The translations under genes were made by a program, and so were the position numbers. A DNA stretch of 64,000 bases from Candidatus Udaeobacter sp. (lineage in GTDB: Bacteria > Patescibacteriota > Patescibacteriia > Magasanikbacterales > GWA2-37-8), in contig DATION010000002.1 of assembly GCA_035473115.1 (NCBI GenBank), positions 9,469-73,468 of the forward strand, written 5' to 3'. Below, in pieces: positions 1-52,404 of this stretch. Below the pieces are notes generated by a model. The model did no database searches. It was not told where the DNA came from and saw only the letters and a program-made list of their open reading frames with translations. Position 1 is the first letter of the stretch, and each line of letters starts with the position of its first letter.

Positions 1-957
1 ATTGGTGAAACAATTGCTGATTTAAATAATCCAATTGCTTTACCGTTGTTAAAAGTTGAAGAACCGACTGTAAAAATGACTTTTTCCGTTAATGATTCGC
101 CATTTGCCGGTAAAGAAGGCCAGTTTACAACTTCCAGACAAATTAGAGAAAGATTAATGAAAGAATTAGAGACCGATATGGCTCTAAGAGTGGAAGATAG
201 CGACGAAGGTGGTTGGATCGTTTCCGGTCGTGGTGAGTTGCATTTGGCAATTTTAATTGAACGTTTGCGTCGTGAAGGTTATGAATTGCAAGTTTCTCGT
301 CCACAAGTTATAGTTAAAGAAATTGATGGCCAAAAAATGACTCCTTATGAACAGGTATTTATTGAAGTTCCGGAAGCTCATTCCGGATCGGTAATTCAAA
401 AATTAGGCAGCCGGCATGGTGAAATGCGAGAAATGAGAACTGAAAACGGCATTGTTTTCTTAGAATTTATTATTCCGACTCGCGGGTTGTTTGGTTACCG
501 TACTGAATTTTTAACAGATTCTAGAGGATTGGGAATTATCAATACAATTTTTCATCAATATTTACCAGACCCAGGCAATTGGCGCGAACGTGAGCAGGGT
601 TCTTTGGTCGCCCACGAAACTGGTGCCAGTAGTCTATATGGTTTGCTTAACGTGCAAGACAGAGGCGTCATGTTTATTGGTCCGGGTGTGCAGGTTTATA
701 AAGGCCAAGTAGTTGGTCAAAATGCTCGCAGCGAAGATATTAGTGTGAATGTTTGTAAAGAAAAACAGTTATCTAATATGCGTTCTAAAGGTGATGGCAG
801 CGCTGAACATTTTAATACTCCAAAAACAATGGGCTTAGAAGAAGCTTTGGAATATATTGGCGATGATGAATTAGTGGAAATAACTCCAAAAAATGTTAGA
901 ATAAGAAAAGTGGTTTTAGATGAAAATGATGCTCGCCGCAAAGCTAGAGGAATGTAA
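1..957 (+). CDS. typA: GTP-binding protein TypA/BipA, C-terminal part (5' end lies upstream of the window)
   Basis: Frame is open from nt 1; the translated sequence matches the TypA/BipA C-terminal domains (EF-G-like domain plus the TypA-specific C-terminal domain). Listed ORF 46..957 is the internal-Met version. Confidence 0.85.
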   Translation: MGETIADLNNPIALPLLKVEEPTVKMTFSVNDSPFAGKEGQFTTSRQIRERLMKELETDMALRVEDSDEGGWIVSGRGELHLAILIERLRREGYELQVSRPQVIVKEIDGQKMTPYEQVFIEVPEAHSGSVIQKLGSRHGEMREMRTENGIVFLEFIIPTRGLFGYRTEFLTDSRGLGIINTIFHQYLPDPGNWREREQGSLVAHETGASSLYGLLNVQDRGVMFIGPGVQVYKGQVVGQNARSEDISVNVCKEKQLSNMRSKGDGSAEHFNTPKTMGLEEALEYIGDDELVEITPKNVRIRKVVLDENDARRKARGM

Positions 958-1041
958 TTGGCGGCCCCATCGTCTATCAGTTAGGACGTGACCTTCTCAA
1001 GGTCGAAAGACGGGTGCGATTCCCGTTGGGGCTACAAATAA

Positions 1042-1075
1042 AAACACTTCGGTTTATCCGGAGTGTTTTTTATTT
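1042..1075 (+). terminator. Intrinsic terminator after typA
   Basis: Stem AAACACTTCGG / CCGGAGTGTTT (one G-U pair), loop TTTAT, followed by TTTTTTATTTT. Confidence 0.6.
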
Positions 1076-1080
1076 TGCGG

Positions 1081-1109
1081 TTGACAGTAAATATTGCATG
1101 TGTTATACT
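1081..1109 (+). promoter_or_regulatory. Sigma70-like promoter for mntR-mntH
   Basis: TTGACA (1081-1086), 17-nt spacer, TATACT (1104-1109). Confidence 0.55.
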
Positions 1110-1110
1110 T

Positions 1111-1130
1111 TTGTTCGTATATACGAACAA
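1111..1130. promoter_or_regulatory. 20-bp perfect palindrome, candidate MntR/DtxR operator
   Basis: TTGTTCGTAT|ATACGAACAA lies between the -10 element and the mntR ATG (1137), where it would cover the transcription start. Confidence 0.5.
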
Positions 1131-1136
1131 ATTTGT

Positions 1137-1544
1137 ATGTCTAAAATTACTCAAACGCGGGAAGATTATCTGCGAGCTATATATCGTTTTTCGGAACAAG
1201 GTGTCCATGTTCGTATTATTGATATTGCTAACAATCTTGGCTTAGCTCGTTCAACTGTTTCGGAAAGAATAAAAGATTTACAATTGGCAAAACTTGTTAA
1301 GCCAAATCAAAATGAGGGGATTGTGCTTACTCCAAAAGGCGATTTGCTAGGACGGCAGCTTACTTATAAGCATCGGCTTATTGAAGTTTTTCTTAATAAA
1401 ACTTTAGGTATTGATGCTAAAAAAGTCCATGCCGAAGCGCACAAACTGGAGCATGCTTTTTCCGATGAGGTAATTGGCAGGCTGGCAAAATTTTTGGGAA
1501 ACCCAACTCAAGATCCACATGGAGAAAAAATTATTAAAGCTTAA
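1137..1544 (+). CDS. mntR: DtxR/MntR family metal-dependent transcriptional repressor
   Basis: N-terminal winged HTH (REDYLRAIY...LARSTVSERIKDL) plus a metal-binding dimerisation region. The ATG at 1137 is preferred over the ORF-track start at 1014, which would run through the promoter. Confidence 0.8.
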   Translation: MSKITQTREDYLRAIYRFSEQGVHVRIIDIANNLGLARSTVSERIKDLQLAKLVKPNQNEGIVLTPKGDLLGRQLTYKHRLIEVFLNKTLGIDAKKVHAEAHKLEHAFSDEVIGRLAKFLGNPTQDPHGEKIIKA

Positions 1545-1547
1545 TTT

Positions 1548-2921
1548 ATGAATCAAGCAGAAGAAAAAATAGATTTAACTACTCAAGGTTGGAGATTAAA
1601 AAATAATACTCCCAGTCTTTCCGAAGTTCATCGCAGTATTTCTATTCCCAAGGGAATAAAGTTTTGGCAGAAAATGTTGGCTTTTGCCGGGCCAGGTTAT
1701 CTGGTTGCGGTTGGTTATATGGATCCGGGGAATTGGGCAACGGATTTGGCCGGCGGATCTCACTTTGGCTATACTTTGCTAAGTGTTATTCTTATTTCCA
1801 ATTTAATGGCGATTTTATTGCAATCTTTGGCAGCTAAATTAGGAATTGTGACCGGCAGAGATTTAGCGCAAGCATGCCGAGATCACTATTCTAAACCGAT
1901 TGCCTTTTGTCTTTGGGTTTTATGCGAGATTGCTATTATTGCTTGTGATTTAGCAGAAGTTATCGGTTCAGCCATCGCGCTTAATTTACTTTTTAAAATC
2001 CCTTTGATTTTGGGAGTCTGCATAACGGCGCTTGATGTTTTGCTTATTTTATTTTTGCAAAATAAAGGCTTTAGGTACATTGAAGCTTTGGTAATTGCTC
2101 TAATTGCCACGATTGCCGTCGCTTTTGGTGCGGAAATTATTTTTTCTCATGCCAATTTGGCCGGAGTCATGTCTGGATTTATACCGAGTTTTGAAATTAT
2201 CAAAAATAAAGAGATGCTGTTTATCGCCATTGGTATTTTGGGCGCAACAGTGATGCCGCATAATTTATATTTGCATTCTTCAATTGTGCAGACTCGCCAG
2301 TTTGAAACTGATTCCGAAGGTAAGAGAGAAGCAATTAAATTTGCCACTATCGATTCAACTGTAGCGCTTACTTTTGCCTTATTTGTTAATGCTGCTATTT
2401 TAATTGTTTCGGCCGCCACCTTTTTTACTACCGGACAGCATGAAGTTGCTGAAATTGGCGATGCTTATCGTTTGTTATCACCAACACTCGGTGTCGGCGT
2501 GGCCAGTATTTTATTTGCGGTAGCCTTGCTTGCTTCTGGGTTAAATTCCACATTTACCGGCACTCTTGCTGGTCAAATTGTGATGGAAGGTTTTTTACAG
2601 ATTCGCCTAAAGCCTTGGTTGCGCCGTTTGATTACTCGGTTGATGGCCATTGTCCCGGCAGTAATTGTAGTGGCGCTGTATGGTTCAAGCGGCACTGCTA
2701 AACTGCTTATCTTGAGTCAGGTTGTGCTTAGTCTGCAATTATCTTTTGCGGTTGTGCCTCTTATTTTGTTTACTAGTGATAAAAATAAAATGGGTGAGTT
2801 TGCCAATTCTTGGTGGATAAAATCTTTAGCTTGGATTGTTGGCATTGTAATAATAATTTTAAATACCAAATTACTTCTTGATTTTTTTGGCATTACCAGC
2901 TTTGTTACTAGTTTATTTTAA
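1548..2921 (+). CDS. mntH: NRAMP family divalent metal (Mn2+/Fe2+) transporter
   Basis: Nramp signature [24 protein letters not shown]; polytopic membrane protein; starts 4 nt after mntR. Confidence 0.9.
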
Positions 2922-2999
2922 CTCTTCATTTAGGATTGACTAAAATGCAATTTGGTGGTTAGATGATTGGACGAAACAAACTAACAACAGGAGAGAGCC

Positions 3000-3476
3000 A
3001 TGCCTCTGATGAGTTCAAGGAAGAAAGTAATGGAGGAGGTAGGGGTTCTTTTCGTTCTTTATGTTGCGGTTGGTTTCACTGCCGAAGCATTATCAACCGG
3101 AATTCGAGATTCCATTGGCGCTATGATCGCCGGGAAGTTTGATCCCACACTTCCTTGTCGGACAAATCTTTGGGTCGTACCGGTCTATGCTTTGTCTGCG
3201 ACAGTGGGCTTCAGTGTACTGGGCGCCTTGTTTCCAAACTTTTTCAGACTACCCTGGCGGGTTCGTGGTCTAGTTTATATGCTGGGCATATACTGTATAG
3301 AATATGTCTGGGCAGTGCTAATCAGGGCAGTTTTTGGGATTGAGGTTTGGGTATATAGCGACTCAGAGTTCAGTGTCTTACGCTATAATAACCCTAACTT
3401 CTTCGCACTTTGGTTTCTGTTTGGTTTTGTGTTAGAGAAAATAAAAACCTCGGTTTTGCCGCGCTTATTGCGCTAG
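3000..3476 (+). CDS. Small polytopic membrane protein, unknown function (GC-rich, foreign-looking)
   Basis: About 4 predicted TM segments; RBS AGGAGAG upstream; GC clearly above the local background. Confidence 0.55.
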   Translation: MPLMSSRKKVMEEVGVLFVLYVAVGFTAEALSTGIRDSIGAMIAGKFDPTLPCRTNLWVVPVYALSATVGFSVLGALFPNFFRLPWRVRGLVYMLGIYCIEYVWAVLIRAVFGIEVWVYSDSEFSVLRYNNPNFFALWFLFGFVLEKIKTSVLPRLLR

Positions 3477-9766: not shown

Positions 9767-10099
9767 ATGCAAAGTATCGCGATTCTTATCGCTCTCTGGC
9801 TCATCAGCTGTGTTGGCTGTGGCGCTGCTATTCAGACGCCAAAGGTCAAGAGGGATTTTATCGAGACACCCGGCGTGGTCGCTTTCGAGATCAAGCGTCC
9901 AAACGAGAGTGGTCAGCTCGTTCATCTGATCGGTCGTCGGTTCACTGATCCGGTGACTGTGGTCAGAGGCCCGTGCCATTTTGGCCCAGATTGTTTCACT
10001 TGGCCAGATCCACAGGAAGGAATGCAGACAGTCCAGGTTCTGGACCACTGGGAAGTCATTCTTACAGAAGAAACAACAGTTACAGTCGTCAACAACTGA
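9767..10099 (+). CDS. Small lipoprotein, unknown function (GC-rich island)
   Basis: Signal peptide with lipobox LISC; RBS GGAGG; about 52% GC. Several overlapping ORFs on both strands are GC-induced artefacts. Confidence 0.55.
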   Translation: MQSIAILIALWLISCVGCGAAIQTPKVKRDFIETPGVVAFEIKRPNESGQLVHLIGRRFTDPVTVVRGPCHFGPDCFTWPDPQEGMQTVQVLDHWEVILTEETTVTVVNN

Positions 10100-10132: not shown

Positions 10133-10687
10133 ATGAAGTATTACATTATTGTTGCGATCGCTTTCATTGCCTTCGGCTGTGCTTCCACAGTACAGCAACC
10201 TGCGATGAAGAACAACACAGTTCCGATGGTCATGGGTGCGAATGCTCAGGTCGTTCAGCCAGTAACCGGAGCAGCTCCCAGGGCTGGCCAAGAGGTAATG
10301 GACATGGAGTTGGAGTTTCCAAAAACTCCCAAGAATTTGACGATCAAGGAAGTCCAGGCTGAACTCGGGTCATACACGGCGACGACCAATGGTTGCTATC
10401 TCAAGTATGTTCGCGATGTTCGTCGCGCCACATATATGGATCTGGCAATCGTGGTAGGTTGGAACGGTTATCCTGTTTCAATTAATGTAGTTGCTCCCGG
10501 GCTATCAGCTACAACCGAGAAGAAGATCGAGAGCTGTGTGCGGGATGAGATAGGTTCGTTGCTCCACTTTCCCGAGCGCCGTTTCGATACGACTGCGGTA
10601 ATACGGTACGAATTCCAGCATACCTACACAGAAACGCCTGGCGGCGGCCCACAGCTGAGCTGCTACAACCCGAACGGCTGCCACTAG
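10133..10687 (+). CDS. Secreted/lipoprotein, unknown function, Cys-rich C-terminus (GC-rich island)
   Basis: Signal peptide MKYYIIVAIAFIAFGCAS; RBS AGGAGAG; same spacing (tttccaATG) as the preceding gene. Confidence 0.55.
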   Translation: MKYYIIVAIAFIAFGCASTVQQPAMKNNTVPMVMGANAQVVQPVTGAAPRAGQEVMDMELEFPKTPKNLTIKEVQAELGSYTATTNGCYLKYVRDVRRATYMDLAIVVGWNGYPVSINVVAPGLSATTEKKIESCVRDEIGSLLHFPERRFDTTAVIRYEFQHTYTETPGGGPQLSCYNPNGCH

Positions 10688-42686: not shown

Positions 42687-42744
42687 ATTAAAAAAACAAC
42701 AGACCTCCTTTGGGGGAGGCCATACTTCTTCCGAGCTTTCTAGA

Positions 42745-43464
42745 TTAAAGGCACACATGGTGCACAGTGCAGAAAGCTTTGATATCGGGCGGACCGATGT
42801 ATAATCCGTTTTCGTCCGTGGTGTACCACATCTTTTTGTCGTTCATGATACTCATTCCGTCTTCATATATATGAGGTAGTCCTGTGACGTGTCCCATCTC
42901 ATGAATTACGGTTTGTAGCAGGAGGTGATACATCTTGTTCTGAGCATCATCTGGCATCATCTTTACCGGATGATTTTTGATATAAGATGGAAATATGTCA
43001 ACATGCATTAGCACGTCCCCACCCGGTATGGCGAATCCTGTATTGTTACCATCTCCGGTACTATTGTCTCTTTCGAATTCTATCATCTCACGAGTTGTTT
43101 GCGGTATCTTGTAGACTACCACTCGTCCGTCAGTGAAGGAATTAGTTTTGGACGGGTCAAAGTCTTCGATGTTGATGAAGCCTTCGAAGATAAATACTTT
43201 CTTCCCGTTCCTAATATACGGAGCCATAGCAGTGTTCCACTGCTCGACAGCTCTCTGAATAAGCTCACGAGGGTTTTCTACCCGCATACCGTTGCTATCG
43301 TAAGCTGGATCTCCATTCCAGCTATCCTGAGCATACACATGGATCGGTAAAGATGGTGGCGGGTCTGCTGCGTCAAACATCTCTGTGAGACATCCAGTGG
43401 TGCCAGTAATAGCACCAAAGAATATCACCAGACGAATTACCAACGTCGACATAGCCCTAGCCAT
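42745..43464 (-). CDS. Metzincin-type zinc metalloprotease lipoprotein (GC-rich island)
   Basis: Signal peptide with lipobox TTGC; HEMGHVTGLPH (HExxHxxGxxH) followed by the Met-turn SIM. Confidence 0.65.
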   Translation of the reverse strand: MARAMSTLVIRLVIFFGAITGTTGCLTEMFDAADPPPSLPIHVYAQDSWNGDPAYDSNGMRVENPRELIQRAVEQWNTAMAPYIRNGKKVFIFEGFINIEDFDPSKTNSFTDGRVVVYKIPQTTREMIEFERDNSTGDGNNTGFAIPGGDVLMHVDIFPSYIKNHPVKMMPDDAQNKMYHLLLQTVIHEMGHVTGLPHIYEDGMSIMNDKKMWYTTDENGLYIGPPDIKAFCTVHHVCL

Positions 43465-43982
43465 AGCTGACCTTGTTTTTCTGCTCCCTCAATAAGGGGG
43501 CGGTAAAGGTATCCGAGTTGTTTGATCATTTCTGGGTTAGGAAGGAAAACCTTCCAGCTCGCCATCCCAGTCCATTTGCCAACTGCGACTTCTGCCCCTA
43601 TTCCCAGAGCAAGATCCCAGGAACGAGGCGTGTCTTGGTTGCTCAGATACTTAGAACCGAAATATCTGAAGTACCCGAGACTAACTGGCACTCGCCACCG
43701 TGCACCATGAGCAATGTCAATTGTTAGCTCTCCCAGCCAGCCGTGGTGGTTTAGAGAGGTACTCAATCCGAAGGGCGTATGTTCATTGCGGATCTTAGCA
43801 ACCAGATTCGTGGTTATTGTACGCCACTCTGGCTGTAGGATTGATGTGCCAACACTTGCACCAGCCTGAATCTCAAACCTTCCGGGAAGGTTGAAATCGA
43901 ACCCATCAGCCTTTGCGGTTTGGTTGAAGGTTGAGAGGCCAAGAAATAGCACCCCGACCACTAGAGTAAGTAGTACTTTCAT
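43437..43982 (-). CDS. Secreted beta-rich protein, possibly a small beta-barrel (OmpX/OmpW-like) (GC-rich island)
   Basis: Signal peptide; alternating hydrophobic pattern with an aromatic C-terminus; RBS GGAGG; 28-nt overlap with the downstream metzincin gene. Confidence 0.45.
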   Translation of the reverse strand: MKVLLTLVVGVLFLGLSTFNQTAKADGFDFNLPGRFEIQAGASVGTSILQPEWRTITTNLVAKIRNEHTPFGLSTSLNHHGWLGELTIDIAHGARWRVPVSLGYFRYFGSKYLSNQDTPRSWDLALGIGAEVAVGKWTGMASWKVFLPNPEMIKQLGYLYRPLIEGAEKQGQLWLGLCRRW

Positions 43983-44110
43983 CTGAGCCTCCTATAACCG
44001 TGATTGGTGATAATTTACTTATACCACAAAATAAGCAAAATGTCAATCGTATTAAATACAGATTAGATAGATTATTTTTTACCTTTTATTTTTACAATTT
44101 TTATCCACAC

Positions 44111-44140
44111 CCTCCGCTTGTAAGCGGTTTTTTATTTTAT
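44111..44140 (+). terminator. Orphan intrinsic terminator-like hairpin
   Basis: CCGCTTGTAAGCGG followed by TTTTTTATTTT; there is no plus-strand gene upstream. Confidence 0.4.
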
Positions 44141-44179
44141 ATTAGCCAAAAAAATTAGTATAAAAAATGGATGAAAATG

Positions 44180-44208
44180 TTGACTTATGTTTTAAAGTGG
44201 TATAAAAT
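44180..44208 (+). promoter_or_regulatory. Putative mraZ promoter
   Basis: TTGACT, 17-nt spacer, TAAAAT. Confidence 0.4.
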
Positions 44209-44276
44209 GGATTGTAGTGGAATTAAGTGGGGAATATGCTTGTCTCTCTAACTTAAATAAATTTTCCCATTTTATT

Positions 44277-44708
44277 ATGTTCATTGGTGAATACAGCCAC
44301 AGCATAGATGAAAAAGGCAGAATGGCTATACCGGCCAAATTTCGTCAGGAATTAAATAAAGGTGCGGTGGTAACCAGAGGTTTAGATAACTGTCTTTTTA
44401 TTTACACCAAAAGCGAATGGGCAAAGGTGGCAGAAAAATATGCTAATTTGCCAATTGCTCAAGCCAATAGCCGAGCTTTTTCCCGTTTAATGCTGGCTGG
44501 CGCTATGGATGTTGAGCTTGATAAGCAAGGCAGAATTATTTTGCCGGAGTATTTGCGCCAATTTGCCAATGTGAAAAAAAATGTAGTTATCGCTGGTCTA
44601 TATAGCCGGTTAGAAATTTGGGATGAAGAAGTTTGGAATAAATATAAAGGCCAAACTGAAGCCGAGAGCGGCGCGATTGCCGAAAAAATGTCAGAATTAG
44701 GAGTTTAA
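44277..44708 (+). CDS. mraZ: Transcriptional regulator MraZ
   Basis: Duplicated MraZ/SpoVT-AbrB-like domains (MFIGEYSHSIDEKGRMAIPAKFR and DKQGRIILPEYLR). Confidence 0.85.
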   Translation: MFIGEYSHSIDEKGRMAIPAKFRQELNKGAVVTRGLDNCLFIYTKSEWAKVAEKYANLPIAQANSRAFSRLMLAGAMDVELDKQGRIILPEYLRQFANVKKNVVIAGLYSRLEIWDEEVWNKYKGQTEAESGAIAEKMSELGV

Positions 44709-51243: not shown

Positions 51244-51405
51244 ATTCTGTTACTTAATTAGAGTAACAATTTCTTTACAATTCAATTACAGGCGGTTTCT
51301 CTCTGTTTTAGAGGTCTTTAATTTGGGTCTCAAAAACAGGGAGAAATCCCGCTTCTTATCGGCAGTCCTGTTTCAGGACTGCTAACCACCGTTTCAAGAG
51401 GAGAG

Positions 51406-52275
51406 TTGAACATGATGAACTATCGGAATTCCTTGCAGTCGACCAGTGCCAATGGCCCGTTTATTGTCCTGGATCATTTCAGGATGACCAAGAAGCAAGT
51501 TGCCGAATTCCATCGGCGACTCCCCGGAGTGACCGAGGAGACGGTCCGCCAGGCGATCGAGCAGTACAACTTCTTCCTCGCCGAGGGTGGTAACGTCAGG
51601 CGCCCCTGGTTGCATGATGGTCAGAGCCGGATTGTCGCACCAATGTGCAGCGAAGCGGTGGACTTGCTCCAGCGTAAGTTCCCCAGGACCGTTGCGTCGT
51701 CCAATTGGTGTGGAGGATGGCCACGACAGCAGCAGCGCCAGGACCGTAAGGAGTACGGCCGGTACTACGAGCCGGGAGTCCGTGTGCTCATTGCTGCCAA
51801 GCGATCTCGTGTCGCGGTGGAGAAAGCACCAGTGACGACCTCGTCCCTGTCGATGGATTACGATGATGACTTTCCCGATCAGCGTGCATATGATAGAGCC
51901 TTCCGTGATCCTGATGACGATGACTATGGCCATGATGGAGACGGTGGCTTCTACGGAGATGGAGATGGTGATGGTTCGGACAACGAACCAAACCATGACA
52001 CCGACTCGGAGAATGCGACCAAGAAGATGTATGCCGCGACCCCTGTTGTGTTCAAACGATTCGGCGATCAGAAAACGATCGTTCTCGTCATCTCCAATGG
52101 TGATCGGAAGCGTGCCGAGATCTTCGAGATCAACGGGAGTGTTGTCACCACCCACAAGACCTCGCGTGCTCAGAAGTACACCGACGCTGAGCTCAAGGCC
52201 AAGGGATGGCAGCACGGCAATCTCGGTGACGAACGTTTCAAGCCGATTTTGGCGGTCATCCTGACCGCCAACTAG
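51406..52275 (+). CDS. Hypothetical bipartite protein with D/G-rich acidic linker (about 58% GC, foreign)
   Basis: RBS GAGGAG; N-terminal domain of about 130 aa, a DGDG/DDDD low-complexity linker, and a C-terminal domain of about 90 aa. The antisense 297-aa ORF is a GC artefact. Confidence 0.6.
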   Translation: MNMMNYRNSLQSTSANGPFIVLDHFRMTKKQVAEFHRRLPGVTEETVRQAIEQYNFFLAEGGNVRRPWLHDGQSRIVAPMCSEAVDLLQRKFPRTVASSNWCGGWPRQQQRQDRKEYGRYYEPGVRVLIAAKRSRVAVEKAPVTTSSLSMDYDDDFPDQRAYDRAFRDPDDDDYGHDGDGGFYGDGDGDGSDNEPNHDTDSENATKKMYAATPVVFKRFGDQKTIVLVISNGDRKRAEIFEINGSVVTTHKTSRAQKYTDAELKAKGWQHGNLGDERFKPILAVILTAN

Positions 52276-52404
52276 AAGGAGTCTCACTACCGTGAACTGA
52301 GCGTCAGTTCGCGGTACAGGCGCCCTCAGGAATATTTCTCCAGAGTCTGCGCTTCTTGCGCCAAATCATTTGGCCCCAGAAGCGCTCTGGAGAAATCCAA
52401 AACT

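Follow-up and report, generated by a model that had tools for sequence, protein, structure and literature searches.

What use could a bacterium that is thought to have no outer membrane make of a predicted outer-membrane-type β-barrel protein, and why should the gene for it run into that of a putative lipid-anchored protease? The question is raised by a pair of overlapping genes in a 64,000-nucleotide stretch of metagenome-derived DNA (contig DATION010000002.1, assembly GCA_035473115.1; hereafter the window). The NCBI label of this contig, 'Candidatus Udaeobacter', cannot be retained. The LepA protein encoded in the window is 88% identical to that of Ca. Magasanikbacteria, a lineage of the CPR, and the synteny of the window fits that of two further Magasanikbacteria contigs (L007 and L009). 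The CPR are treated as monoderm, with the outer membrane proposed to be absent (PMC12102498; bioRxiv 10.1101/2021.05.31.446380), and have been proposed to live as epibionts (PMC12102498). An earlier note on this DNA had remarked that such a barrel would be anomalous if the organism were monoderm.

The two open reading frames and the stretch that they share were found exactly where the earlier note had placed them (Table 1). Together with their control elements they make up a cassette of simple anatomy, that is, a single promoter-like site and a strong ribosome binding site, followed by the overlapping reading frames and a single terminator. The promoter-like site has a TG one base upstream of its -10 hexamer and is conserved in L001, a diverged relative that comes from a different sample. 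An automatic promoter scan made no call at this position because it accepts only -10 hexamers with T as their sixth base. The intrinsic-terminator-like hairpin at the distal end of the cassette is also conserved in L001.

Table 1. Features of the cassette and of its insertion site, in window coordinates.
Feature	Position	Strand	Evidence or remark
Inserted segment, about 1.4 kb, containing the whole cassette	42687..44100	-	Comparison with L007, L009 and L001
Promoter-like site, TTGACA-17 nt-TATAAG	44018..44046	-	5' of the barrel gene; read from the sequence
Shine-Dalgarno sequence, AGGAGG	43988..43993	-	5 nt before the barrel ATG; read from the sequence
Barrel gene, 181 aa, predicted exported eight-stranded β-barrel protein	43437..43982	-	ORF, AlphaFold, Foldseek
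Gene overlap, 28 nt	43437..43464	-	Protease ATG lies within conserved Leu-Trp codons (CTA TGG) of the last strand of the barrel
Protease gene, 239-aa lipoprotein with a predicted minimal matrixin-like metzincin catalytic domain	42745..43464	-	ORF, Pfam, profile matches
Lipobox cysteine codon (C25)	43390..43392	-	Invariant in the alignment of eight orthologues
Zinc-binding motif HEMGHVTGLPH (H188, E189, H192, H198)	42871..42903	-	Sequence, orthologue alignment
Met-turn methionine M207	42844..42846	-	Invariant; aligned with the MMP Met-turn in profile matches
Terminator-like hairpin GGCCTCC-CCCAAA-GGAGGTC, then TGTTGTTTTTTT	42692..42721	-	End of the cassette; hairpin scan
Ancestral β-CASP terminator hairpin	44114..44127	+	Moved 1.4 kb from the β-CASP gene by the insertion

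Comparison with relatives indicates how the cassette came to lie where it does. In L007 and L009 the stop codon of a β-CASP gene is followed directly by a TATCCACA...hairpin...TTTTTTGTTTTATATTAGCC element and the leader of mraZ, only about 250 bp separate the two genes, and the cassette is absent. The TATCCACA...hairpin...TTTTTTGTTTTATATTAGCC element is also found in the window (at about 44103-44150) and in L001, with the cassette in between. The compositional island proposed in the earlier note is thus a precise insertion, missing from the β-CASP/mraZ site of two relatives, and the genes do not show the vertical inheritance across the lineage that the note had named as part of a refutation. 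Its claim of an elevated GC content also stands, although the figures it gave (about 50% against about 35%) call for slight adjustment: the cassette has a GC content of 47.3% (49.8% for the barrel gene and 45.4% for the protease gene), as against 38.7% elsewhere in the window. GC3 is 0.467 and 0.487 for the two cassette genes, or about three standard deviations above the other 48 genes of the window (z about 3; mean 0.327, sd 0.048, maximum 0.472). The cassette is best explained as a self-contained two-gene operon that was acquired horizontally and inserted in the β-CASP/mraZ spacer. That it should instead be foreign to this CPR genome through an error of assembly or binning has next to no probability; the mislabelling at NCBI does show that this MAG has binning problems, but the junctions are identical in a 233.9-kb NCBI contig and a 48-kb Logan contig, and an orthologous cassette (56-63% amino acid identity) occurs in L001 between the same flanking genes.

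The divergence between the window and L001 is also informative about whether the cassette is still in use. Its dS is about 1.2, which is about equal to that of a flanking gene, and dN/dS is 0.18 for the barrel gene and 0.24 for the protease gene, values which indicate that both genes are under purifying selection and appear to be actively maintained. It is accordingly very improbable that the cassette is an undecayed, non-functional relic of transfer from a diderm organism. The still elevated GC3, the missing destination membrane and the loss of a family-conserved glutamate from the barrel lumen would all fit such a relic, but both reading frames are intact in two lineages at this distance and with these dN/dS values, and the catalytic residues, signal peptides, ribosome binding site, promoter and terminator have all been kept.

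The product of the upstream gene starts with a signal peptide (residues 1-25, ending in AKA before DG), after which the sequence runs in alternating amphipathic strands. Its AlphaFold model (pLDDT 90.4, pTM 0.78) predicts a closed barrel of eight antiparallel transmembrane strands, each of 8-13 residues, with an 18-residue helix (152-169) in the loop that joins strands 7 and 8 (loop 4). The top Foldseek matches to this model are OmpA, OmpW, OmpX, OprF, Ail, PagL and NspA. Ranks 1-9 among PDB structures are eight-stranded membrane barrels, comprising eight outer-membrane proteins (OmpA, OmpW, OmpX and OprF-N) and one de novo designed protein, with TM-scores against the target of up to 0.67. The rest of the best 50 are larger outer-membrane barrels almost throughout; TbpB at rank 47 is the one partial exception, and no soluble barrel is ranked above it. 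The chemistry of the strands across 46 family members points in the same direction, with one face having a mean hydropathy of +2.18 and about 3% charged residues (0-11% per strand), whereas the opposite, glycine-rich face has a mean hydropathy of -1.02 and about 26% charged residues (5-41% per strand). The small OmpX/OmpW-like barrel that the earlier note had suggested is supported on all of these counts, and a soluble β-sandwich or inhibitor runs against both the strand chemistry and the structural matches.

Other features of the family are compatible with a membrane barrel of this kind, while some are its own. The C-terminal residue is tryptophan in the window protein (W181) and tryptophan or phenylalanine in 33 of the 46 members (26 and 7, respectively). 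Loop 4 with its helix is conserved to the level of the strands (0.53, compared with 0.24-0.44 for the turns), the 'external' loop 3 is unusually conserved, and a lumen glutamate that is near-invariant in the family (window position 74) is missing from the CPR copies. Weak, sub-threshold matches to PF13505 (OMP_b-brl) were obtained for 14 of the 46 members, and the window protein has no significant match among Pfam, NCBIfam or PDB sequences. The window protein resembles the OmpA transmembrane domain, OmpX/Ail, OmpW, OprF-N, PagL and NspA in its signal peptide, its eight amphipathic strands in antiparallel order, the short turns at one end of the barrel and the longer loops at the opposite end, its hydrophobic exterior and its aromatic C-terminus; it differs from them in the loop-4 helix, in the conservation of loops 3 and 4, in a gene that comes obligatorily with a protease gene, and in its presence in a CPR genome. 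On the strength of the model, the protein is best explained as a Sec-exported eight-stranded membrane β-barrel, processed by signal peptidase I, that would belong to the OmpA/OmpX/OmpW class and represent a previously unnamed family.

The downstream gene encodes a lipoprotein, the signal peptide of which (MARAMSTLVIRLVIFFGAITGTTG) immediately precedes a lipobox cysteine, Cys25, that is invariant in eight orthologues (in the contexts AGC, LGC, FGC and LAC). Its zinc motif, residues 188-198, fits the pattern HExxHxxGxxH/D; H188, E189, H192 and the Met-turn methionine M207 are invariant in the eight orthologues, and the third ligand is either histidine or aspartate. When compared with the PDB, a profile of these eight sequences matched MMP catalytic domains only (E 1.6e-6 to 1e-3), mostly across the active-site helix and the Met-turn, and Peptidase_M10 (PF00413) is the best Pfam family for 8/8 orthologues (best E 1.1e-6). 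These matches and the invariant lipobox cysteine uphold the earlier assignment of a lipoprotein of metzincin/matrixin type. The window protein itself scores 20.5 bits against PF00413 (E 4.6e-4), under the gathering threshold of 24, and the family, judged by its sequences, is M10-like yet not captured as a PF00413 member. Because the Pfam match (residues 64-209) leaves only a short tether after Cys25, of about 18 residues up to the start of the catalytic domain, the protein appears to have no room for a prodomain; the PRCG (cysteine-switch) motif is absent from it, and the residue that follows H198 is isoleucine. There are two conserved cysteines towards the C-terminus, C232 and C238. An AlphaFold model built from a four-sequence alignment reached a pLDDT of only 39 and was set aside, so the putative metzincin fold (a five-stranded sheet and three helices) is predicted from the motifs and profile matches.

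Among known metzincins the closest likeness is to the matrixins (MEROPS M10A, which include bacterial karilysin), with which the cassette protease shares HExxHxxGxxH, a Met-turn about nine residues past the third ligand, and a small catalytic domain. The Met-turn sequence of MMPs is ALMYP, and that of the L006 relative is VIMYP. Unlike matrixins, the cassette protease is predicted to be lipid-anchored through its lipobox cysteine, is without a cysteine-switch prodomain or hemopexin domain, has the conserved C-terminal cysteine pair and, in the window, scores below the Pfam threshold; unlike MMPs it has no serine after the third histidine, and in some orthologues the third ligand is aspartate. 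Snapalysin (M7), a small metzincin of Streptomyces, has the HExxHxxGxxD form that is also found in the L001 and L010 orthologues, and the 'WN' motif of its N-terminal helix is shared with the cassette proteases. However, matches to snapalysin in the PDB and NCBIfam are weak and not significant (E 1.3 and 0.047), and the cassette proteases exceed snapalysin in size, are lipoproteins and in most cases use histidine as the third ligand. The protease is best explained as a divergent, lipid-anchored, prodomain-less, matrixin-like zinc endopeptidase, a prediction drawn from its sequence. Both cassette proteins are new sequence families of known structural classes.

Members of the barrel family, which is rare, were revealed only by an exhaustive HMMER scan, which gave about 46 relatives. 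Word-indexed homologue searches returned the protein itself and one relative, no relatives were found in genome and metagenome contig collections by back-translated pattern scans or among the viral contigs scanned, and the alignment of the 46 barrels is too diverse for pattern design. P0019, a 619-residue NHL-repeat protein, was rejected as a spurious relative that aligned with profile positions 16-46 only, six times. Nine other cassettes, at eight loci, could be inspected, and in 9/9 a lipoprotein gene overlaps the 3' end of the barrel gene and encodes a metzincin wherever enough sequence is present. The overlap is 28 nucleotides in eight of them (L001, L002, L003, L004 twice, L006, L010 and L011) and 34 nucleotides in one further contig, and the start codon of the protease always falls within Leu-Trp codons of the barrel gene. 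L010 is the 52.6-kb contig Ga0376279_0000337, and L011 is k141_4342549. The recurrence of the same two-gene arrangement and overlap in unrelated contigs is more than chance would produce, and the position of the protease start inside the last strand of the barrel suggests that the two genes may be translationally coupled. We have found no earlier description in the literature of this obligatory pairing of a barrel and a metzincin with a nucleotide-precise overlap.

The carriers of the ten cassettes, counting that of the window, range from 35% to 64% GC. In those of high GC the cassette is compositionally native, and the housekeeping genes of the other carriers had no counterparts in the Magasanikbacteria DNA with which they were compared. 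L004 has a tandem pair of cassettes, the contig ending within the protease gene of the second, and a fragment of an additional metzincin gene directly precedes the cassette of L003; no third conserved gene lies beside the cassettes examined. We give little credence to the notion that the two genes are functionally independent, a commonplace small outer-membrane protein gene and a commonplace lipoprotein protease gene that happen to travel side by side. Proteins of either class are common, but the pairing is seen in 10/10 cassettes and the 28-nucleotide overlap in 9/10, across carriers of such different base composition, the unit is duplicated as a whole in L004, and none of the ten barrel genes seen is without a downstream partner. 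Readings of the pair as a phage, defence, plasmid or spanin element were also rejected: PHROGs and PADLOC searches gave no meaningful match for the gene pair, and plasmid, phage-genome and IMG/VR collections held no relatives.

Collectively, we favour a reading in which the cassette is a horizontally acquired, translationally coupled barrel/protease operon whose products act as a surface pair, and we would put its chances of being right and of being wrong at about the same. Translational coupling would supply barrel and protease in a fixed ratio, the barrel, embedded in the membrane, would dock or regulate the tethered protease, probably by way of loop 3 and the loop-4 helix, and the protease would then degrade extracellular or envelope proteins. 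What we infer here concerns the formation of a complex, the docking or regulating role of the barrel, the substrate, and the membrane that would hold the barrel in an organism without an outer membrane. The last of these points counts against the surface pair, since it is not obvious where an eight-stranded barrel would go in a CPR cell, thought to be devoid of both an outer membrane and BAM. The loss of the lumen glutamate from the CPR copies also counts against it.

Two sets of known systems provide precedents for parts of this scheme. In the potempin/KLIKK system of Tannerella forsythia and in serralysin-Inh systems, a small β-barrel gene directly precedes a metzincin gene in the same transcript, and the two products work as a pair at the cell surface (PMC9890683). 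There the barrel is an inhibitory lipoprotein of soluble fold and the peptidase is secreted, whereas in the cassette it is the peptidase that is the lipoprotein, and the barrel appears to be non-lipidated and integral to the membrane. The second precedent, shared as a concept, is the complex of a lipoprotein with an outer-membrane barrel, as in RcsF-OmpA/C/F, LptD-LptE and MlaA-OmpC (PMC4942254); the barrels of these complexes either consist of 16-26 strands or belong to the general porins, their genes do not overlap those of the lipoproteins, and none of the lipoproteins is a protease.

The first precedent also offers a competing account, in which the cassette is an inhibitor or chaperone operon of potempin/KLIKK or serralysin-Inh type and a soluble or peripheral barrel keeps the prodomain-less metzincin latent. 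The gene order is the expected one, a small β-barrel gene that directly precedes a metzincin gene and is transcribed together with it, and some potempins are themselves eight-stranded up-and-down barrels (PMC9890683); moreover, the protease is without a prodomain and the conserved loops 3 and 4 could serve as a wedge. Even so, we think it distinctly unlikely, because the cassette barrel is without a lipobox, the outward-facing side of its strands is almost entirely hydrophobic across 46 members and the other side is charged, its strands of 8-13 residues and its structural matches favour membrane barrels, and neither a potempin nor Inh occurs among the best 50 Foldseek matches. Regulation of the protease by a barrel that is embedded in the membrane is part of the surface-pair reading.

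How could a barrel of this class be accommodated without the machinery of an outer membrane? In vitro, BAM is dispensable for the folding of OmpA, OmpX, PagP and similar small eight-stranded barrels into lipid bilayers. This makes it conceivable, if unlikely, that the barrel is directed at other cells and, once secreted, inserts without BAM into the outer membrane of a bacterial host or into another foreign membrane, where it would be a receptor, an anchor or a lesion for the protease tethered at the CPR surface. Purifying selection on both genes in the Magasanikbacteria lineage and the conservation of the surface loops of the barrel would fit such a role, as would a carrier that belongs to the CPR, proposed to be epibionts without an outer membrane (PMC12102498). 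On the other side, the family is compositionally native in organisms of high GC, for which, if diderm, a conventional place in the outer membrane would be enough. The host-derived or host-targeting module of the earlier note is likewise speculation. It is improbable that a CPR organism devoid of an outer membrane retains under selection a captured, BAM-independent OmpA/OmpX-class barrel that docks a lipid-anchored, collagenase-like protease, as a minimal device of two proteins for attachment to, or attack on, another cell. The barrel of such a device could sit in the single membrane of the symbiont itself or, once secreted, in the membrane of the host cell.

Should the surface pair form a complex, it would offer a highly compact model of how a membrane barrel can position or control a surface protease that has no prodomain, and it would be unusual for a transmembrane β-barrel to work with neither an outer membrane nor BAM. 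The import of the cassette into a CPR genome and its selection there bear on the nature of the CPR envelope and on how epibionts engage other cells. In a stronger variant, the whole barrel/protease family would be native to monoderm lineages. The context of the high-GC carriers, which includes a sugar-binding protein with a transmembrane-helix anchor, large multi-transmembrane/TPR proteins, and contigs dense in housekeeping genes, would be compatible with the CPR or with Chloroflexota. As a practical matter, the public MAG contig is flagged here as mislabelled, and one gene is apparently missing from its annotation.

The GC-rich stretch that the earlier note read as two overlapping minus-strand genes has the anatomy of a complete small operon: a promoter-like site, a ribosome-binding site, two open reading frames overlapping by 28 nt, and a hairpin followed by a T-run (see the table of features). 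This cassette, comprising a barrel gene and a protease gene, is organised as one transcription unit. Its GC content is 47.3% (barrel gene 49.8%, protease gene 45.4%) against 38.7% in the remaining window, so the enrichment holds while the figure of about 35% first quoted for the genome was slightly low; GC3 is 0.467 for the barrel gene and 0.487 for the protease gene, compared with 0.327 ± 0.048 for the 48 other window genes. The NCBI annotation apparently lacks the barrel reading frame, and this exact protein is known solely from the Logan assembly; nearby accessions are HSR88890 (beta-CASP), HSR88891 (protease) and HSR88893 (RsmH), leaving a single slot, presumably MraZ.

Features of the cassette and of the surrounding window (window coordinates)
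Feature	Position	Strand	Basis
Barrel ORF, 181 aa	43982..43437	-	ORF read from sequence
Protease ORF, 239 aa	43464..42745	-	ORF read from sequence
Promoter-like TTGACA-17-TATAAG, TG one base upstream	44046..44018	-	sequence
AGGAGG ribosome-binding site, 5 nt ahead of barrel ATG		-	sequence
GC-rich hairpin, then T-run	42721..42692	-	sequence
Small putative lipoprotein, 110 aa (…LISCVGC…)	9767..10099	+	
Small putative lipoprotein, 184 aa (…IAFGC…), adjacent to the 110-aa gene	10133..10687	+	
Third GC-rich patch	51394..52287		
289-aa ORF in third patch	51406..52275	+	
ClpA/ClpB-like AAA+ protein, 921 aa	46463..49228	+	
mraZ leader	44150..44290	+	

The 233,864-bp contig record is labelled Candidatus Udaeobacter sp. 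(Verrucomicrobiota) at NCBI. The window LepA, however, shares 84-96% identity with many proteins, of which all the named ones are from Ca. Magasanikbacteria or Patescibacteria, and the order LepA-MurJ-…-beta-CASP-MraZ-RsmH-FtsL is common to the window and two relatives, L007 (Magasanikbacteria MAG GCA_016182085.1) and L009 (GCA_964641245.1). LepA identity (88% to Ca. Magasanikbacteria), this synteny and a GC content of 39% identify a contig of the CPR (Patescibacteria) and rule out Candidatus Udaeobacter as carrier; the record is probably mis-binned or mislabelled. The window also encodes a short YidC of 252 aa. Since the CPR fall within a monoderm clade and, as has been proposed, have no outer membrane (bioRxiv 10.1101/2021.05.31.446380; PMC12102498; see also PMC8871954), the monoderm carrier that the earlier note had entertained as a condition is borne out by LepA and synteny.

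The barrel protein starts with a classical signal peptide, with the junction between MKVLLTLVVGVLFLGLSTFNQTAKA and DG, and is predicted to be exported by Sec and cleaved by signal peptidase I. It has no match in Pfam, NCBIfam or PDB sequences. A word-indexed search of 5.8 billion proteins returned only itself and one relative, and HMMER, run exhaustively over 1.84 billion cluster representatives (E ≤ 1e-3), gave 47 proteins including the query, all of 135-254 aa bar one repeat protein, which was rejected as spurious. The family signature (alignment A3) reads …RxWDxTxGxGxE…DWRxFLPDPxxxxxxYGxFARPxYxEAxKGGQLWLGxxxxW. An AlphaFold model built with this alignment (pLDDT 90.4, pTM 0.78) predicts eight strands of 8-13 residues, with an 18-residue helix joining strands 7 and 8. 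When compared with the PDB by Foldseek, the model matched the OmpA transmembrane domain, OmpW, OmpX, OprF-N, a designed transmembrane barrel, Ail, PagL and NspA (E 2e-4 to 1e-2, target-normalised TM <= 0.67); all further hits in the top 50 were other outer-membrane barrels with the sole exception of TbpB at rank 47, and no potempin, lipocalin or Inh-type barrel was among them. Across the 46 members one strand face is hydrophobic on every strand (mean Kyte-Doolittle +2.18, 0-11% charged) and the other is polar (-1.02, 5-41% charged) and Gly-rich, as expected of a barrel that sits in lipid and has a polar lumen; a soluble barrel would show the reverse. The chain ends in W or F in 33 of the 46, and 14 match PF13505 (OMP_b-brl) weakly. 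Assuming the canonical topology, with both termini on the inner side, turns have 2-4 residues and loops are longer; unusually, loop 4 and its helix are as conserved as the strands. The resemblance to small outer-membrane barrels noticed at first reading thus survives structural comparison, and the protein is confidently predicted to be a barrel of outer-membrane type, belonging to a family that has no name.

The second protein carries a lipoprotein signal (…ITGTTG before the Cys) and is predicted to be Sec-exported and lipidated. Its HEMGHVTGLPH motif is followed nine residues further on by the Met of the Met-turn, and it matches Peptidase_M10 with E 4.6e-4, under the gathering score. Eight orthologues from related loci have an invariant lipobox Cys and also have in common H188/E189/H192, Met207, two cysteines near the C-terminus and a WN motif, the third zinc ligand being His or Asp. 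The only PDB entries matched by a profile of these eight are catalytic domains of MMPs (MMP-16 at 1.6e-6, then MMP-14, -7, -8, -3, -12…), and PF00413 is the best family for all eight (best E 1.1e-6). The M10 match begins about 18 residues past the lipid-anchor Cys, leaving no room for a cysteine-switch prodomain. Because an AlphaFold model from four sequences reached a pLDDT of only 39, the fold is taken from motifs and profiles. These agree with the metzincin/matrixin-type lipoprotein first suspected, and the predicted product is a minimal matrixin-like lipoprotein with an intact metzincin active site and no prodomain.

Pairing of the two genes is obligatory and their overlap conserved. Every barrel relative with readable context is followed by an overlapping gene for a lipoprotein of 188-268 aa, a metzincin wherever enough sequence is present (this gene is incomplete or unread in L002, in the second L004 cassette and in one contig known without DNA). 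Among the nine other cassettes (one each in L001, L002, L003, L006, L010 and L011, two in L004/L005 and one in a further contig) eight have an overlap of 28 nt and the ninth has one of 34 nt; the protease start codon always lies within the conserved Leu-Trp codons of the last barrel strand (CTATGG; in L004 TTGTGG, with a GTG start). In L004 the two cassettes stand in tandem (52..1996), the second protease gene being cut by the contig end. Neighbouring genes differ at every locus, so that only these two genes make up the unit. Phage, plasmid and viral-contig collections yielded no relatives, nor did the PHROGs and PADLOC libraries. Directly upstream of the L003 cassette is a metzincin gene fragment (1..375, ending …HELGHAFGRDH…CTVRDCR). 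Near the high-GC cassette of L010, a 203-aa putative lipoprotein (2825..3436, +; …LLAAFGC…) with an FtsH-like HEAGHAV zinc motif is a further candidate for a small lipid-anchored metalloprotease.

In L007 and L009, where beta-CASP and mraZ are only ~230-250 bp apart, a terminator hairpin and a conserved mraZ leader directly follow the beta-CASP stop. The same hairpin is present in the window (~44103-44135) and in L001, a diverged relative, with the cassette, bringing its own promoter and terminator, lying between hairpin and stop. The sample from which L001 derives (SRR22808056) contains a LepA (L008) 96% identical to that of the window. The cassette accordingly entered a narrow sublineage once, and it is missing at this site in relatives with 88-89% LepA identity. 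Between window and L001, amino-acid identity is 63% for the barrel and 56% for the protease, against 88% for the neighbouring stretch of beta-CASP. The three differ little in dS (1.0-1.3) and have dN/dS values of 0.18 (barrel), 0.24 (protease) and 0.08 (beta-CASP). The pair has therefore co-diverged after one acquisition under purifying selection more relaxed than that on beta-CASP. In the high-GC carriers L003, L010 and L011 (61-64% GC) cassette composition equals that of the flanks (GC3 0.79-0.84), whereas in those of low GC (window, L001, L002) the cassette is GC-enriched, a difference that would fit import from a GC-rich donor followed by partial amelioration. The compositional island of the earlier note is accordingly upheld by GC3, by the self-contained insertion and by the empty site.

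Translational coupling would supply barrel and protease in matched amounts, and the two may form a surface complex. In it the barrel, embedded in the membrane, would dock the tethered protease, regulate it or do both, probably by way of its conserved loop 3 and loop-4 helix; the protease would cleave proteins of the envelope or outside the cell. Genetically, the potempin/KLIKK system comes closest: there the gene just before that of the peptidase, and transcribed together with it, encodes a small beta-barrel lipoprotein that inhibits the peptidase on the outer membrane (PMC9890683). The cassette, by contrast, swaps the anchor and lipidation roles, and its barrel looks membrane-integral. RcsF-OMP lipoprotein/barrel complexes are a looser analogue (PMC4942254). 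Barrel and protease each represent a new family inside a known structural class, and the coupled pair is undescribed as far as the searched literature goes. If, as proposed, CPR cells have no outer membrane, a selected OmpA-class barrel has no obvious home: it could insert into the symbiont's own membrane, enter the membrane of a host cell independently of BAM, or be housed in a hitherto unrecognised envelope feature of this lineage. The suggestion in the earlier note of a host-derived or host-targeting module goes further than this and is speculative.

Two further GC-rich patches lie in the window. The one holding the two small putative lipoprotein genes has a GC content of ~0.51 and GC3 of 0.53 and 0.57, where the genome mean is 0.33. 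Like the cassette, it may represent an imported envelope module, and Pfam gave no match for its 184-aa protein. The third and strongest patch (GC 0.56, GC3 0.67, z ~7), likewise without a Pfam match, has long reading frames on both strands, the plus-strand one having an acidic Asp/Gly-rich middle. The AAA+ protein is unusual in its N-terminal extension, which contains hydrophobic segments and a zinc-ribbon-like CxxC…CxxC; L007 encodes at the same place a protein of equal length with the same Clp/AAA+ Pfam domains. The mraZ leader, highly conserved among Magasanikbacteria including L007 and L009, combines a TTGACT-17-TAAAAT promoter with repeated GTGG(A/G) motifs resembling MraZ operator repeats.
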